Assembly: GCA_038858525.1 (NCBI GenBank) | Contig: JAWCFL010000006.1 | Coordinates: forward strand, 41,759 to 73,758 | Direction of reading: 5' to 3' | Length of the DNA: 32,000 nucleotides | From: Candidatus Jordarchaeales archaeon | Lineage (GTDB): Archaea; Asgardarchaeota; Jordiarchaeia; Jordiarchaeales; Freyrarchaeaceae | Shown here: positions 5,853 through 32,000 of the stretch, in pieces | Layout of the letters: every line of letters starts with the position of its first letter | How positions within the stretch are numbered: the first letter of the stretch is position 1 | Notes under the pieces: generated by a model | Database searches by the model: none | The model's input: only the letters and a program-made list of their open reading frames with translations | Told to the model about the DNA's origin: nothing | Made by a program: the position numbers and the translations under genes

Positions 5853-6428
5853 AATCTCTCTGAAGAATCGCTGAACGAGCCTGACTTCAAAAGCGTTAAG
5901 CATCGAGGACTTTGGTTAAATCCATCACGTGCTTTTTTCATTCTTTTTGTTACATCCAAAATATTGAGACATACAAATAAATTGAGATATAAAGTGAGGA
6001 ATAAACTGCAAAGTGCATCGTCAATCAATAATAGCATTTTTGGCCCTAGATTCTTGAACGGCAAGGTTCCTCGTAGTTAACACGGAATTTCTCCGCCGTT
6101 CCTAAAATCTGACCTGGCAACTGCACTTCACCATTCCCCACCATAGTTACAATTTTTTAACCTTCAACTTACTTGGTTTTTCTGAGAACGAGCACAGAAA
6201 CGCACACTGAAAGACCTCGAAGTAGTTTATCATCAGCGAATTCAAATGCAGGCGTTCAGCGCCTTAGCGCACCTTAAAGCCCTAAAGTTAACATTAACTG
6301 TTTCTAGGTTGCTAAAATATTCTCCATGAACACTCCACAAGAGAAAAATCATCTTCGCAAAGGGGGGTTAATAAACAGTTTCTATCTAATATAAAGTTTA
6401 TTATCTTGCATATAACTTTGGTGACCTT

Positions 6429-7044
6429 GTGCCTGAGAAGCTCTACACTAATGGTGAGGTTGCGAGGACTTTCGGGGCTTCCTATGTCGCTGTTAAGAAG
6501 TGGGCTTATTCTGGTAAGGTTAGGCTTATTAAGACGCCTGGCGGGAAGTATAGGTTTCCCGAGAGCGAGGTAAAGCGGCTTCTTGGAGGGCGGACTCCGA
6601 AGGGAAGGGCTGTGATTTACGACAGAGTGGGTGCAGCTGACCAGTGGGAGGATTTGGAGAGACAGAAGCAAAGGCTCATTAGGTATGCCAAGAGTAGCGG
6701 CTACAGGATATAGTGGTTCTTGAGGACATAGCTTCCGGGTTAAACGAAGAATAGGAAGAGCTTGATGAGGCTTTTTGAAGTGGTTTCACAGAAACAAGTG
6801 GAGGTCGTCTTCATAACATAGGGATAGGCTTACAAGGTTCGGCTTCAAGTATTTAGAGGCATTCTTTAATTCTCATGGCTGTAGAATAGAGTGCTTAGAT
6901 GCTGAAGAAGTTAAGGAGCCACAACAAGAGCTTATAGATCTAATAGCCATAGTTACGAGCTTTGCTGGGAGAATCTATGGAGCGAGAAGCAATAAGAAGC
7001 GGAGGGTTGTGGAGGCTGTTGAGCAGACGATTAGAAACAATTAA
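6429..7044 (+). pseudogene. tnpA: IS607 TnpA serine recombinase, frameshifted
   Basis: HTH (LYTNGEVARTFGASYVAVKKWAYSG) and RAVIYDRVG..DLERQ, then in shifted frames EDIASGLNE, RDRLTRFGFKYL and LIAIVTSFAGRIYGARS; TAA at 7042-7044. Confidence 0.85.
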
Positions 7045-8415
7045 ACTAGCGGCGAGCTTCAAGCTGAATGGTTTTGTGCCAGACCGAGTTATTCCAAGCC
7101 TACAGGCAGATATTAAGCGAGCTCTTAGACTATGCCTGCGATAGGGGAGTCTCAAGCTTTAAGCGCTTAAAGTCCGAGAAGTATTGTGACTTAAGGGCGA
7201 GGTACCCGAGCTTGCCTATATCAGCAGTTTCGTGGTATATAGGTTTAAATAGAGGTTGATTACTTTGTTCTTAATGATGTCTACTCTAAAACCTGCCCAG
7301 TCTGTTCAGGAAGCATGGCTTCCTATCCGGGCAGGATATTAAACCTTCAGATGCGGGGAGAAGGGTTCCCCCAAAGAGCCCTCAATGAGTTAATCGAGGG
7401 GGAAGGGTTAAGTAGGAATGAAGGTAACAATTCACTATGTATTCCTACTTAACTCAGAACCCTTCACACTACATTTATACTGCATGCCCGATGGCATGCT
7501 TAATATACAAATCCTTCAGGAAGCTGAAAGGGAGGAATAAAGTTAGGTTAGGTCTGAAGCCGCTATTCAGGAAAGACGTTATAATGCTCGACGACCACCT
7601 ATTCAGCATGAACCTCGATAAATGGGAAGCTCCCGTTGCAACGGAAGCTGGGAGAATAGTGTTCAGAATCCTTCATGGAACATGTCATGAGAAGTTCAGG
7701 GGCATGAAGGTTGGGCAAGCATGGCTCGTCAGAAGGCGCGATGGCCATTATTTGAAGGTTGTCTTCAGCAAGACCGTAGAGGTTGCTGAACCTAATGGGA
7801 AAAAATTGGCTATAGACGTAAATGAAGCAGCGTAGCCTACGGCACGGAGAACAAGATAGGCGTCCTTAAGACTGGCGAGAAAGCCATAAGGACGGCATAC
7901 TTCCTGAAGATGCGTAGACTCCAATCCAAACTGAGGCTCAACGAGAAGCCGATACTTGCGAAGTATAGGGGTAGAGAGACGAGGAGGGTGGAGGCAATCC
8001 ACCATAAAATCGCAAACAGTCTCATCGAGGAGGCTAAGAGACAGGGCTGCACAACAAAATAGTCCTCGAAGACCTCAAGCACATCAGAAGACGCATAAGA
8101 AAATCTAAAGCTCTTAACGGCAGATTGAATAGGTGGGGCTTTCAGAAAACTCCAGCACATCATAGAATACAAGGCTAGCTTAATAGATTAAGCGTATTTT
8201 ATGTTAAAGCTGGGAGCACATCAAGTCTATGCCCAAAATGCAGGGGCAGGCTAAGCCCAAGCGGGTATAGGCTGATGAAGCGCCCAAGATGCGAACTGGA
8301 GGAGGACAGAGATATAGTAGCCGTGAAGAACCTCCTCCAGAGAATCCAGATAGATGTGCCGGCTTCACCCGTTCACGGCGAAAGCCCTCCCATGAAAGGA
8401 GGAAAGAAGAAATGA
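7031..8415 (+). pseudogene. tnpB: TnpB pseudogene interrupted by a 246-bp insertion, with further stops and frameshifts
   Basis: LRARYPSLP|SHYIYTAC rejoins when 7218-7463 is removed (compare YPNHPSHYIYTA in the intact TnpB). LAIDVNE, VLEDLKHIR, SSLCPKC, DRDIVAVKNL and DVPASPVHGESPPMKGGKKK* are recognisable in different frames. Confidence 0.85.
7215..7463 (+). mobile_element. Non-autonomous IS607-derived mini-element E1 (left end + TATA + omegaRNA-like scaffold + right end)
   Basis: CCT at 7215-7217 and 7461-7463. CC + 8 nt + CAGTTTC left end; TTTAAATA at 7244-7251; a collapsed tnpB tail reading YSKTCPVCSGSMASYPGRILNLQMRGEGFPQRAL; a 13-bp inverted repeat at 7407-7419 / 7441-7453; TCAGAAC + CC right end. 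Confidence 0.85.
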
Positions 8416-8438
8416 AAGTTAACACTGGATCAGAACGG
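8354..8438 (+). ncRNA. Putative omegaRNA scaffold (3' part) of element B
   Basis: Same motif as in element A (ATGTGCCG...CCGTT..CGGCGAAAGCC.CCCATGA). Internal CCGTTC (8369-8374) is complementary to the terminal GAACGG (8433-8438). Confidence 0.55.
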
Positions 8439-8595: not shown

Positions 8596-9654
8596 CTAAT
8601 ATATTTCTTCTTCACCTTTTTTTCCCTCCCCGGCCATTACCTTGACCTTCTCTTCCTTGACCTTCTCTTCCTTGACCTTCTCTTCCTTGACCTTCTCTTC
8701 CTTGACCTTCTCTTCCTTGACCTTCTCTTCCTTGACCTTCTCTTCCTTCCCGATTTTCTTTCTCAGCTTCTCATCCAGTATTTTTAGTACCTCTATGGCA
8801 TACAGGCTTCTGCCGCAGTAAGGGCACTCGATGACGTTGCCGCTTTCAGGAAGCTTTAGTTTTCCTCCACAATGCGGGCATGCAATCTCCTCAATTATTA
8901 ATCCTCTGGTTTTTAGCAGCAAGCGTATATGTTCGTAGCTCTCTTTTTCCTCAAAAAACACGCCGATTTCTGAAGCAAGCTGATCAAGACGCTCATCGAA
9001 ATCTTTCCTGAGTAACTCCACTTTCTCACCCTGAGCTTTCACTATGTTCGGCCACTCCGCTTTAAGCTTCCTGTATTTATATTCAACATTGTCTAAATTC
9101 GAACGCAGTTCGTCATTAAGCTTATCTACGGCCTTTTTTATCTCTCTTCCTTCCTTCTTCAACATTTTTATTTCCTTACGAGCTGTGGGACTTATCAGTG
9201 GAGACAACACATAAAGAATGTGGGCACCGTATAACGCTAACCCAAATAACAGACCAGGCAATCCATAGCTATAAATAAGTATAACAGTAACAAGGAAAAT
9301 TGAGGTATGCAAGCAGCACACAAAGAGCTTTCTAAACCTATCCTTTGCTTGATTCACGTACATCATTAACGCGTCTTCTAACTCGTGAAGCTTATAAGTT
9401 AAAGCCTCTATTTCCGGCGTATACTTATTTCGTAATTCGTCGCATTCTTTTACTTTCGCGTAATCTAAGCCTCGCACCATTAACTCATACTTTCTGCTTT
9501 CATCATTAAGGACACGTAAATCCTCGGCCAGCTTCCTTAACTTGCCTCTTAGCTCAGGCGCAAGCTCCGTGTACTCGAAACCGTACCCCAACTTCGACTC
9601 AAGCATCTTTTTTATTTTTCTCTCGTTCTCCCTAACCCGCTCATCATAATACAC
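8596..9654 (-). CDS. Membrane protein with coiled coils, two TM helices, a C-terminal Zn ribbon and an (EEKVK)7 tail
   Basis: 352-aa ORF; hydrophobic LHTSIFLVTVILIYSYGLPGLLFGLALYGAHILYVL; CPHCGG...CPYCG. Confidence 0.8.
   Translation of the reverse strand: MYYDERVRENERKIKKMLESKLGYGFEYTELAPELRGKLRKLAEDLRVLNDESRKYELMVRGLDYAKVKECDELRNKYTPEIEALTYKLHELEDALMMYVNQAKDRFRKLFVCCLHTSIFLVTVILIYSYGLPGLLFGLALYGAHILYVLSPLISPTARKEIKMLKKEGREIKKAVDKLNDELRSNLDNVEYKYRKLKAEWPNIVKAQGEKVELLRKDFDERLDQLASEIGVFFEEKESYEHIRLLLKTRGLIIEEIACPHCGGKLKLPESGNVIECPYCGRSLYAIEVLKILDEKLRKKIGKEEKVKEEKVKEEKVKEEKVKEEKVKEEKVKEEKVKVMAGEGKKGEEEIY
8641..8745. repeat. Perfect 15-bp tandem repeat x7 (CTTGACCTTCTCTTC), coding EEKVK on the minus strand
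   Basis: Seven identical contiguous units with no spacers. Confidence 0.97.
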
Positions 9655-10173: not shown

Positions 10174-11757
10174 GTGGAGGAGAACATGAAGAGAGCGGCA
10201 TGGAGAACTTACATGGCAGTGTTGCTAGTAGGAGTGCTGGCGCTCACATTGGTAGCAATGCAAATATCAACGCCAGCACAAGCACAAACACAACGAACGA
10301 TACAAAAGGCTCAAATGACATGGGCAAAAACGTATGGAGGAACGTATGGCGACTCCGCTTTTCGTGTGGCTGTTGATGGTCAGGGGAACATCATAGTGGT
10401 AGGCGAAACATGGTCCTTTGGTGCTGGTGGTAGTGACGTTTGGGTCTTGAAGCTTGACCCTAACGGGGACCCAACATGGCAGAAGGCGTATGGAGGAACG
10501 TATGGCGACTCCGCTTTTCGTGTGGCTGTTGATGGTCAGGGGAACATCATAGTGGTAGGCGAAACATGGTCCTTTGGTGCTGGTGGTAGTGACGTTTGGG
10601 TCTTGAAGCTGAACGCCTCAGGTAACGTCATCTGGCAGAAAGGATACGGAGGAGAGAGCAAAGATTACGCTTGGGGTGTTGCTGTTGATTCTCAGGGAAA
10701 TATAATAGTAGCGGGAGGAACTGAATCCTTTGGTGCTGGTGGTAGTGACGTTTGGGTCTTGAAGCTGGACCCTAACGGGGAACCAACATGGCAGAAGACA
10801 TATGGGGGAGCGAGCAACGAGTGTGCTCTTGATGTTGCCTTTGATGTTCAAGGAAACATTATAGTGTCAGGGTACACTTACTCCTTTGGTGCTGGTGGCA
10901 GTGACGTTTGGGTCTTGAAGCTGGACCCTAACGGGGAACCAACATGGCAGAAGACGTATGGAGGAATAAACGACGACTATGCTTCTGGCGTTACTGTTGA
11001 TGCTCAGGGGAGCATAATAGTAGCGGGAGGCACAAACTCCTCTAGAGCTGGGGGATGGAACGTTTGGGTTTTGAAGCTTAACAGCTCAGGAGACACCATA
11101 TGGCAGAAAACGTATGGGGAAGCGAAGACTGACGTTGCCTATGATGTTACTGTCAACGCCCAAGGAAACATTATAGTGTCAGGGTACACTTACTCCTTTG
11201 GTGCTGGTGGCAGTGACGTTTGGGTCTTGAAGCTGGACCCTAACGGGGAACCAACATGGCAGAAGACGTACGGAGGAACTTATGAGGACTGTGCTATGGG
11301 AGTTGCCGCCGATAATGAAGGTATAATTGTGGCTGGGTTTACGTCATCCTTTGGTGCTGGGCTTCGAGACCTCTGGGTTTTGCGTATAAGTTCGAATGGT
11401 GAAATTTACAATTCAATATCCGAATTCACCATAAAAAATACTAGCGTGGCGCCTACAACAACAGCGGCTTCCCCCTCACCTACTAACGCTGCAATTTTAT
11501 CGACGAACGCGAACTTGAGCGATACGCAAGCAATAATAACAAATACCAACGCGGCAATAAACACGCAGGCACCGCCTTCCCCATCCTTTTCACCACCTAT
11601 TGAGGAGCAGTTTTTGCTTCTGCTTCTAGTCCTCGGGTTGTATGACTCGGTGGAGAATGCATCTCGAAGTAGTGTGGTTTCCATTGGCTTTTTCATAATT
11701 CTTTTTGGCGACATCAGTTTGTACGTTTTTCTTTATCGAAGGTGGAGACTTGCGTGA
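10174..11757 (+). CDS. Secreted, probably membrane-anchored 7-bladed beta-propeller repeat protein
   Basis: Signal peptide (start probably ATG 10186); seven 52-aa repeats W-x-K-x-YGG...V-x-VD-x-QGNIIV-x-G...FGAGGSDVWVLKL; Ser/Thr-rich stalk; hydrophobic C-terminus ending RRWRLA. Confidence 0.85.
   Translation: MEENMKRAAWRTYMAVLLVGVLALTLVAMQISTPAQAQTQRTIQKAQMTWAKTYGGTYGDSAFRVAVDGQGNIIVVGETWSFGAGGSDVWVLKLDPNGDPTWQKAYGGTYGDSAFRVAVDGQGNIIVVGETWSFGAGGSDVWVLKLNASGNVIWQKGYGGESKDYAWGVAVDSQGNIIVAGGTESFGAGGSDVWVLKLDPNGEPTWQKTYGGASNECALDVAFDVQGNIIVSGYTYSFGAGGSDVWVLKLDPNGEPTWQKTYGGINDDYASGVTVDAQGSIIVAGGTNSSRAGGWNVWVLKLNSSGDTIWQKTYGEAKTDVAYDVTVNAQGNIIVSGYTYSFGAGGSDVWVLKLDPNGEPTWQKTYGGTYEDCAMGVAADNEGIIVAGFTSSFGAGLRDLWVLRISSNGEIYNSISEFTIKNTSVAPTTTAASPSPTNAAILSTNANLSDTQAIITNTNAAINTQAPPSPSFSPPIEEQFLLLLLVLGLYDSVENASRSSVVSIGFFIILFGDISLYVFLYRRWRLA
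10331..11400 (+). repeat. Intragenic 156-bp repeats x7
   Basis: Period is 156 bp. 10331-10454 equals 10487-10610 (124 bp identical) and 10849-10958 equals 11161-11270 (110 bp identical). Confidence 0.9.
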
Positions 11758-11889: not shown

Positions 11890-12480
11890 AATCATAGAGC
11901 TCTTAACGGTAAATTGGCATGGTTACTCGGTGGTTTGATGGAGTTTTCCGCTATTAAAGATGAAGGTCTTGAACGTCTTGTGCGATTAAAAGCTAAATAG
12001 TTGCTCGGCAGTTTCCAGATATATAACTTATTGAGGTTGAAGCCGCCTAAAATTTGCCTAATATGTGGCGAGACAAATGAGCTGAATGGGCGCGTCTTAA
12101 GTGTATGTGAGACTTAAGCGGTAGGATTCTGAACTGCGTAGTCTTTGGTAGACTTGTGTAGCTCTTGGTTTTCATCGAGCCCGTTCTGGGCTCACATCGC
12201 TCTCTAACCCTGTCGAGTCGAACCCGCCCCATACATCCACGCCAAGCCCTTTCGAGCCTGAGGTCATCTGTATGGGGAAAGTCCCCCCATCTGAAGGTGG
12301 CATCATCCGTAGGAAGCCATGCTTCCAGAGCAGAGCCCGGCTCCGGAAAGGTTAATGAGCAAGTCTATTTAAATCTATCTTGAAACTGTTTTTTGAAGGC
12401 GCTTCGCCGCCGTTTTTGGCATTGTAAATTTCCGGCGTGCCGCCCTTATCGTTGGCGGTGAAAACCCCTCGGGAGCTTTA
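11890..12480 (+). pseudogene. tnpB: Heavily decayed tnpB 3' remnant interrupted by mini-element E2
   Basis: RALNGKL (compare KALNGRL in element B) and ICLICGETNELNGRV (compare MCGEISKPNGHV in the intact TnpB). After the insert comes the scaffold motif GTGCCGCCCTTATCGTTGGCGGTGAAAACC (from 12437). The element ends could not be resolved. Confidence 0.65.
12123..12399 (-). mobile_element. Non-autonomous IS607-derived mini-element E2
   Basis: Minus-strand CCT at both junctions (+ strand AGG at 12397-12399 and 12123-12125). CC + 9 nt + CAGTTTC left end; TTTAAATA at 12373-12366; GGAAGCATGGCTTCCTA and ACCTTCAGATG shared with E1; TCAGAAT + CC right end. Confidence 0.8.
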
Positions 12481-31837: not shown

Positions 31838-31882
31838 TTGGAAAAGAAAAATTAAAGCTTCCATGTTCAGGCTTCTTGGTGT

Positions 31883-32000
31883 GGGTTTGCAGCAGTTCCT
31901 GAATAGATAACTTTATATAACACTTCTTAACATTTATTTGTATGATGATTGAGAGGTTGCTGACGCTCAGCGAAGCCTGCGAGAGATTAGGCATTCACCC
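31883..32000 (+). mobile_element. tnpA: Left end and tnpA start of IS607 element C (close relative of element A), cut by the window edge
   Basis: GG + GTTTGCAG + CAGTTCC...; ATG 31942 gives MMIERLLTLSEACERLGIHP. It differs from the element A left end (2904 leftwards) by two substitutions and one 2-nt indel. Confidence 0.9.

Follow-up and report, generated by a model that had tools for sequence, protein, structure and literature searches.

Two protein-less mini-elements of IS607 type, designated E1 and E2, lie nested in tnpB relics within the 32,000-nucleotide stretch of DNA analysed here (the window), which is part of contig C6 of a MAG of 2.09 Mb in 63 contigs. By sequence comparison, both are identified as non-autonomous derivatives in which a left end with a TATA box is fused to a TnpB omega-RNA scaffold, and their guides are predicted to consist of tnpB sequence because the landing site sets the guide. 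We regard the nesting as probably incidental, the elements having come to lie in dead, dispensable IS copies and the guides following from the architecture. The anatomy and boundaries of the elements, the YGCC motif, a covarying scaffold, precise empty sites and single-copy hosts are directly established.

The runs that contain the window stretch are hot-spring metagenomes, and the comparisons with them cover DNA contigs; one metatranscriptome run (X18) contained 7% of the sequence words. Three IS607-like bodies occupy the initial 13 kb of the window, namely IS-A, IS-B and a short tnpB 3' relic (Table 1). The tnpB relic of IS-B aligns with the intact TnpB in three tblastn segments at 31-46% identity, and several other IS-B fragments gave zero Pfam matches. 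At the DNA level, both IS-B and the relic that hosts E2 are single-copy in the MAG, and its contig ends are without IS-B. A third IS-A left end is found at the end of the window, where positions 31878-32000 are 97-98% identical, in inverted orientation, to 2789-2909; many contig ends of the MAG carry IS-A copies, which evidently broke the assembly. Between E1 and E2 lie two regions of repetitive protein-coding DNA, one a 15-nt tandem repeat of about 9 copies (8610-8790) within the minus-strand ORF 8596-9654, the other a run of six 156-nt tandem repeats (10318-11397) within ORF 10174-11757.

Table 1. Coordinates of the IS bodies, mini-elements and predicted guides in the window, and of family members on other contigs of the MAG
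Feature	Position	Strand	Remarks
IS-A TnpB, intact, 391 aa	1064..2239	-	GG-core, multicopy family; decayed tnpA alongside
IS-B, decayed IS607-like host of E1	about 6390..8438	+	tnpA and tnpB both relics
IS-B tnpA relic, MerR-HTH/resolvase	6390-7044	+	Pfam HTH_17/Resolvase
IS-B tnpB relic, split by E1	7040-8415	+	Pfam Cas12f1-like_TNB; multiple stops and frameshifts
E1 left flank TGCC, candidate TAM and serine-recombinase target, core CC	7213..7216	+	family comparison
E1, protein-less IS607-type mini-element, 246 nt	7217..7462	+	nested in IS-B tnpB relic
Predicted E1 guide/target TTCACACTACATTTATACTG	7463..7482	+	sense strand, host tnpB codons SHYIYTA
Short tnpB 3'-end relic, E2 host	11968..12475 (parts 11968-12123 and 12398-12475)	+	blastx
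Predicted E2 guide TACCGCTTAAGTCTCACATA	12104..12123	-	apparently antisense to zinc-ribbon codons of tnpB relic
E2, protein-less mini-element, second subfamily, 274 nt	12124..12397	-	covariance model, 78 bits
C24 complete element	C24:25395-26790 (L002)		61-aa MerR-type HTH ORF and tnpB
Left ends at C14 and C25 ends	C14:47820-48278 (L005); C25:26540-26773		
C17, C53			right ends with tnpB C-terminus ...LNLQMRG...
C42			third mini copy, E2-like

Three parts make up E1: a left end, in which a TTTAAATA box occurs, what remains of the tnpB zinc-finger hairpin, and an omega-RNA scaffold ending ...TCAGAACCC. The first 55 nt of E1, the box included, share 93% identity with the left end at C14, and the last 124 nt share 94% with the C24 right end. 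The right end reads ...CTCAGAACCC, with 7462 as its last base, and is followed by TTCACACTACATTTATAC, such that positions 7461-7483 consist of CC, TTCACACTACATTTATAC and TGC. Placement of the ends is ambiguous by 3 nt (CCT), and 7215-7460 is an equally valid assignment. When the 246 nt are excised in silico, the host frame reads ...RARYPSLP/SHYIYTAC... across the junction (slash) and is collinear with ...KYPNHPSHYIYTA... of the intact TnpB, in which the counterpart peptide of the junction is NHPSHYIYTA. This collinearity bears out, for E1, the proposal of the initial annotation that the guide would be tnpB sequence in the sense orientation. The E1-free arrangement also exists in nature: contigs from three independent metagenome runs (X2, X3 and X4; two studies) skip exactly these 246 nt with the same CCT ambiguity, and the resulting empty site reads TGCC followed by the guide sequence.

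E2 combines a left end containing TTTAAATAG with a longer omega-RNA scaffold ending ...TTCAGAATCC; the right end is followed by TACCGCTTAAGTC, a sequence matched only once, at 12123-12111 (minus strand). Upon excision of E2, blastx returns an 83-aa collinear alignment (E = 0.5) that includes an EYKAK-like block, a CxxCG...NG...C zinc ribbon and a PLxLAxKT tail. The host frame is collinear with three TnpBs, each alignment being weak alone (E = 0.013-3.5; best single match E = 0.013-0.04), and its zinc-ribbon peptide matches the same motif in at least eight tnpB copies of the genome, each weakly. The further proposal that the E2 guide is tnpB antisense finds backing in the collinear blastx alignment and the motif matches, but Pfam returned no match for the short E2-host peptides, and the evidence that the E2 flank is tnpB antisense is weaker than that available for E1.

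A genome-wide search located parent-type sequences at C24, C14, C25, C17, C53 and C42. The initial annotation had suggested looking for full-length CC-core elements whose TnpB ends in LQMRG/MWG, and elements with LNLQMRG in their TnpB were recovered as the C24 element, the C14/C25 left ends and the C17/C53 right ends; the proposal was to have been abandoned if a cognate TnpB were lacking, and the family is present in the genome. E1 can be aligned with the 3' end of the tnpB coding sequence in C24 and C17, and the 3' part that it retains is a structured RNA (fold z = -4.7) whose terminal hairpin is kept between the subfamilies through both-side changes in three pairs (five copies compared). Five copies served to build a covariance model, which recovers 53 copies across all five genomes of the family and scores E1 at 105 bits. 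Like an omega RNA, the E1/E2-type scaffold overlaps the 3' end of tnpB, stops at the right end and covaries; an Rfam scan of the entire window returned no family for the scaffold or for anything else.

The family also includes full elements of about 1.3 kb plus further mini versions. Full elements of the E1 type (C24, C14, C25, L014, L015 and L040) carry, besides tnpB, only a 61-68-aa MerR-like HTH ORF overlapping the start of tnpB, and the catalytic domain of a serine recombinase is absent from them; E2-like full elements in genomes G003 and G004 have, as read by eye, an apparent recombinase C-terminal part upstream of tnpB. For the HTH-only elements, it must be the case either that they are mobilised in trans or that the HTH protein has turned regulator. 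In a related genome (L042, contig C79 of G001), a further mini-element extending from -286 to 0 relative to the right end consists of the HTH gene and the right end with tnpB gone, and is an intermediate deletion form.

The junctions of this family are well defined. Among 29 right ends from five genomes, sequences are conserved through ...GAACCC and diverge at the next base; the right ends terminate in ACCC or ATCC, nearly all of them finishing in CC. At the opposite side, CC precedes all 15 left ends that were compared, and YGCC stands directly before 14 of the 15 (four genomes), the remaining one having TACC. A strict left-end regular expression missed most of the relatives' left ends, and the remainder were read by eye. 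The flanks to the left of E1 and of E2 both finish in GCC, a motif that the initial annotation had put forward as a candidate TAM and that is strengthened in this role by the family-wide YGCC and by the CboIStron parallel described below. The same core dinucleotide on both sides, the lack of a target-site duplication and the precise excision agree with the junction features of IS607. YGCC is likely to serve as both TAM and recombinase target, and position -3 would be what separates self from an empty site.

The copies of the cognate tnpB in the MAG look inactive. The tnpB of C24 has two frameshifts; by eye these look like simple +/-1 shifts and were taken as probable pseudogene lesions, in preference to tRNA-type mini-introns. 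Alone among the CC-core tnpB fragments of the MAG, the C17 copy (L004:2-766) has an open frame, of 254 aa, and it reads SFNVN instead of SFDVN; when aligned to ISDra2 TnpB, this Asn occupies the position of the RuvC-I catalytic Asp (D191), and the copy may be dead or encode a nuclease-inactive variant. The middle part of the C14/C17-type element was not assembled. No close E2-type TnpB was found in the MAG, the best being 39-41% identical. Relatives of the cognate TnpB are present in the genome, but their activity appears doubtful.

Within the MAG, a second match to the E1 guide was not found (next best, 3 mismatches in 16), nor was one to the E2 guide (best, 2 mismatches in 16, in unrelated DNA), and the extra TAM-flanked, guide-matched empty targets that homing would call for were absent. 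The site in the intact tnpB (2032-2013) agrees with the E1 guide at 15 of 18 nt; its mismatches fall at guide positions 1, 4 and 7 and it is preceded by ACCC rather than GCC; this copy is not a target, as the initial annotation had judged probable.

Outside the MAG, uninterrupted host-IS copies with TGCC and a perfect guide match do exist in hot-spring metagenomes, as had been anticipated. Runs X3 and X4 contain the window strain (zero differences in flanking DNA) together with E1-free IS-B contigs that share about 96% identity with the copy in the window and carry indels resembling frame repairs relative to it. These contigs reach 5-15x the depth of the flanking chromosome (571 vs about 100 in X3 and 178 vs about 12 in X4), and are Logan contigs whose copies are not assignable to cells. 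Their depth means that guide-matched targets may coexist with E1 in the same cells or community, and further IS-B copies could have been lost through MAG binning. A scan of JGI metagenomes for CC plus 18 nt of the E1 guide yielded the exact target in 10 tnpB copies, preceded by TGCC in 8 and by TACC in 2, plus one unrelated match. Some of these copies lie in open TnpB frames of 359-392 aa, and they are only about 67% identical overall with unrelated flanks; the search, by its design, picks out exact 20-mer matches. The IS-B homologues in genomes G002 and G004 differ from the guide by 3-6 mismatches in 20, and a scan of genome contigs for the target yielded only a Thermoprotei MAG contig identical to one of the metagenome matches. 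That contig (QMSP01000047.1, Guaymas; L056/L064) and the loci L053-L063 share an identical 20-24-nt stretch encoding SHYIYTAC, even though their tnpB genes elsewhere show about 67% identity or come from a different phylum; the shared DNA stretch may reflect ascertainment through the exact-match search. At two of these loci, L058:2161-2900 and L063:218-960, truncation ends an IS-B-like tnpB 30 nt beyond the position homologous to the E1 site, and next come two small genes that by eye resemble a RelE/ParE-like toxin-antitoxin pair; the idea that a second nested insertion lies 30 nt downstream of the E1 site was rejected, as the family covariance model finds no right end there.

The initial annotation had proposed that occupied and empty tnpB copies be counted, and all 10 of the JGI exact-target copies proved empty of E1 (0/10 occupied). 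Beyond this genome, E1 occupies a single further copy, at the orthologous locus in run X1; there, a 2.7-kb contig leads from the same chromosomal DNA upstream into E1, and its depth is that of the adjoining sequence. The X1 strain is roughly 3% diverged, and its orthologous locus is found on a 20-kb contig without E2. With E1 shared at the X1 locus and E2 absent, the pattern fits two independent, vertically inherited insertions of different age. The same insertion in several target copies at different loci was not found among X1 and the 10 JGI copies, and coverage gaps in metagenome contigs were not counted as evidence. In X1, E1-like words from window positions 7168-7601 reach depths of about 16,000 and 4,600 vs about 48 for the flanking chromosome, and the CC-core family or its mini-elements is extremely abundant in the X1 community.

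How unusual it is to find two family insertions in tnpB depends on the DNA regarded as available. DNA resembling tnpB makes up about 1% of the assembly, and under uniform insertion the probability that 2 of the 6 family insertions in the MAG would fall in it is 0.0013. The probability rises to 0.03-0.22 on the assumption that insertions persist nowhere but in dispensable DNA and that tnpB relics account for 5-15% of such DNA. When the MAG is pooled with its relatives (2 of 30 in tnpB), it is about 0.04 at the 1% rate. None of the flanks of 24 family right ends from four related genomes showed tnpB homology, in a screen that very short or decayed relics would escape. There may be some mild enrichment of family insertions in tnpB. 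E1 and E2 themselves occupy different tnpB regions in opposite orientations.

In the reading that we favour, E1 and E2 would be CC-core IS607-type offshoots that kept the promoter-bearing left end and the scaffold with its right end. A serine recombinase acting in trans would have inserted them at YGCC sites within the tnpB genes of unrelated IS607-like elements, and the host IS copies being dispensable, such insertions would be tolerated and retained. The guide would be whatever sequence adjoins the right end on its 3' side. The RNA would presumably be transcribed from the left-end TATA box and loaded by a cognate TnpB for which YGCC is the putative TAM; after excision, the rejoined YGCC and flank would be cut by TnpB loaded in trans, and repair from the sister copy would retain the element.

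The initial annotation had instead considered that guides of this kind might spread the mini-elements through a multicopy IS family or suppress that family, and neither outcome is borne out by the single-copy hosts, the lack of a second target, the 0/10 occupancy and the 0/24 flanks. Spread would amount to hyperparasite homing, an IS-in-IS drive in which E1 RNA with a cognate CC-core TnpB cuts E1-free IS-B copies and repair pastes E1 into them. The mechanism is coherent, and several components for it are at hand: a conserved, TAM-like YGCC flank, a scaffold that looks intact, a TATA box in the left end, CC-core tnpB copies in the genome, and empty IS-B sites with TGCC and a perfect target, some in open frames of 359-392 aa; the principle has moreover been demonstrated for multicopy plasmids (10.1101/2025.02.20.638934). 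However, only one locus is occupied and it is shared by descent, IS-B is single-copy in the MAG with no contig end carrying it, exact-target copies are occupied in 0 of 10 cases, and their identity of about 67% with unrelated flanks offers poor homology for repair. The C24 tnpB is frameshifted and that of C17 has N for the RuvC-I Asp, and E2 has neither a target anywhere nor a close cognate TnpB in the MAG (39-41%). We therefore consider homing unlikely. We give similarly low credence to the more general proposition that a guide-only IS607 mini-element residing in a multicopy IS behaves as a second-order selfish element, converting or eliminating empty copies in a possibly polyploid Asgard archaeon, a proposition kept alive by the abundance, in the same hot-spring communities, of E1-free IS-B copies with TGCC and a perfect guide match.

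Suppression would take the form of IS policing or competition, in which the guides destroy or suppress rival IS elements, with the CC-core family or the host as beneficiary, as a primitive defence against mobile elements. The E1 guide does match the conserved SHYIYTA segment, with the 20-mer exact even in a Thermoprotei MAG and in relatives of 67% identity, and an anti-self or defence side-effect of TnpB has been proposed for plasmids (10.1101/2025.02.20.638934). But the exact 20-mers were selected by the search, and the G002 and G004 homologues carry 3-6 mismatches in 20; the abundant resident IS-A escapes targeting through three seed mismatches and the lack of a TAM; tnpB-directed guides do not recur among 24 other family copies; and template-less chromosomal cuts would harm the cell. 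We regard policing as very improbable, and less credible than homing. A guide-independent account, in which the recombinase favours YGCC in the YPxLP-SHY codon context as a landing site, draws on the presence of (C/T)T(G/A)CC at the homologous position in 5 of 5 IS-B relatives (TGCC in 4) and on the mild enrichment of insertions in tnpB. E2 nevertheless sits at a different tnpB site, the YPxLP site holds no further family copy, and a motif as short as YGCC does not account for specificity, so that such a preference also appears improbable.

Incidental nesting remains the reading that we prefer, and under it the system has descriptive value as a well-bounded CC-core/YGCC IS607 variant in Asgard archaea. 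The natural occupied and empty alleles fix the element ends to the base, and the E1 RNA and the IS-B site form a natural target pair for tests of the TAM and of trans-loading. Were a drive to prove true, the reach of TnpB homing would widen beyond the retention of donor sites and the invasion of plasmids to include conflict among transposon families, and RNA-only parasites would be shown to exploit a foreign nuclease and to inhabit a foreign transposon.

SMN1/ISC1733 of Sulfolobus islandicus, a non-autonomous element of the IS607 family, resembles E1 and E2 in its description as a non-coding archaeal mini-element derived from IS607 and mobilised in trans. Gene-less elements with an omega RNA for use in trans are an already known kind, exemplified by PATE-like IS200/IS605 elements and OMEGA stand-alone omega RNAs (Meers et al. 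2023, PMC10055086). PATE-like elements and E1/E2 alike lack protein genes, keep both ends and take as guide the flank 3' of the right end. Their parents differ, however, that of E1/E2 being IS607-type (serine recombinase, dsDNA circle, core dinucleotide) and that of PATE-like elements a Y1/HUH IS605 with hairpin ends; E1 and E2 are also distinguished by their occurrence in an Asgard archaeon and by a left end bearing an archaeal TATA box. In the IS605 TnpB gene drive of multicopy plasmids, insertion reprogrammes the guide and empty copies are cut, then converted or lost (Mears et al., 10.1101/2025.02.20.638934). In that system the target is a plasmid within a single cell and the effect is a measured one, whereas here the proposed target is another IS, single-copy in the MAG, and no spread was seen. 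Closest at the level of junctions is the CboIStron, in which the TnpA_S target equals the TnpB TAM (TGGG), the core is GG, the scaffold ends in UCGG and discrimination occurs at -3 (Zedaveinyte et al., 10.1101/2023.11.20.567912). In contrast to the CboIStron, which has a complete serine recombinase, E1-type full elements encode only the 61-aa HTH protein, and the CC-core family has CC/YGCC in place of GG/TGGG and no group I intron. Both systems nonetheless have the same dinucleotide at the two junctions, a TnpA target that would equal the TnpB TAM, and a scaffold end resembling a near-TAM that differs at -3, such that precise excision regenerates the TAM together with the target.
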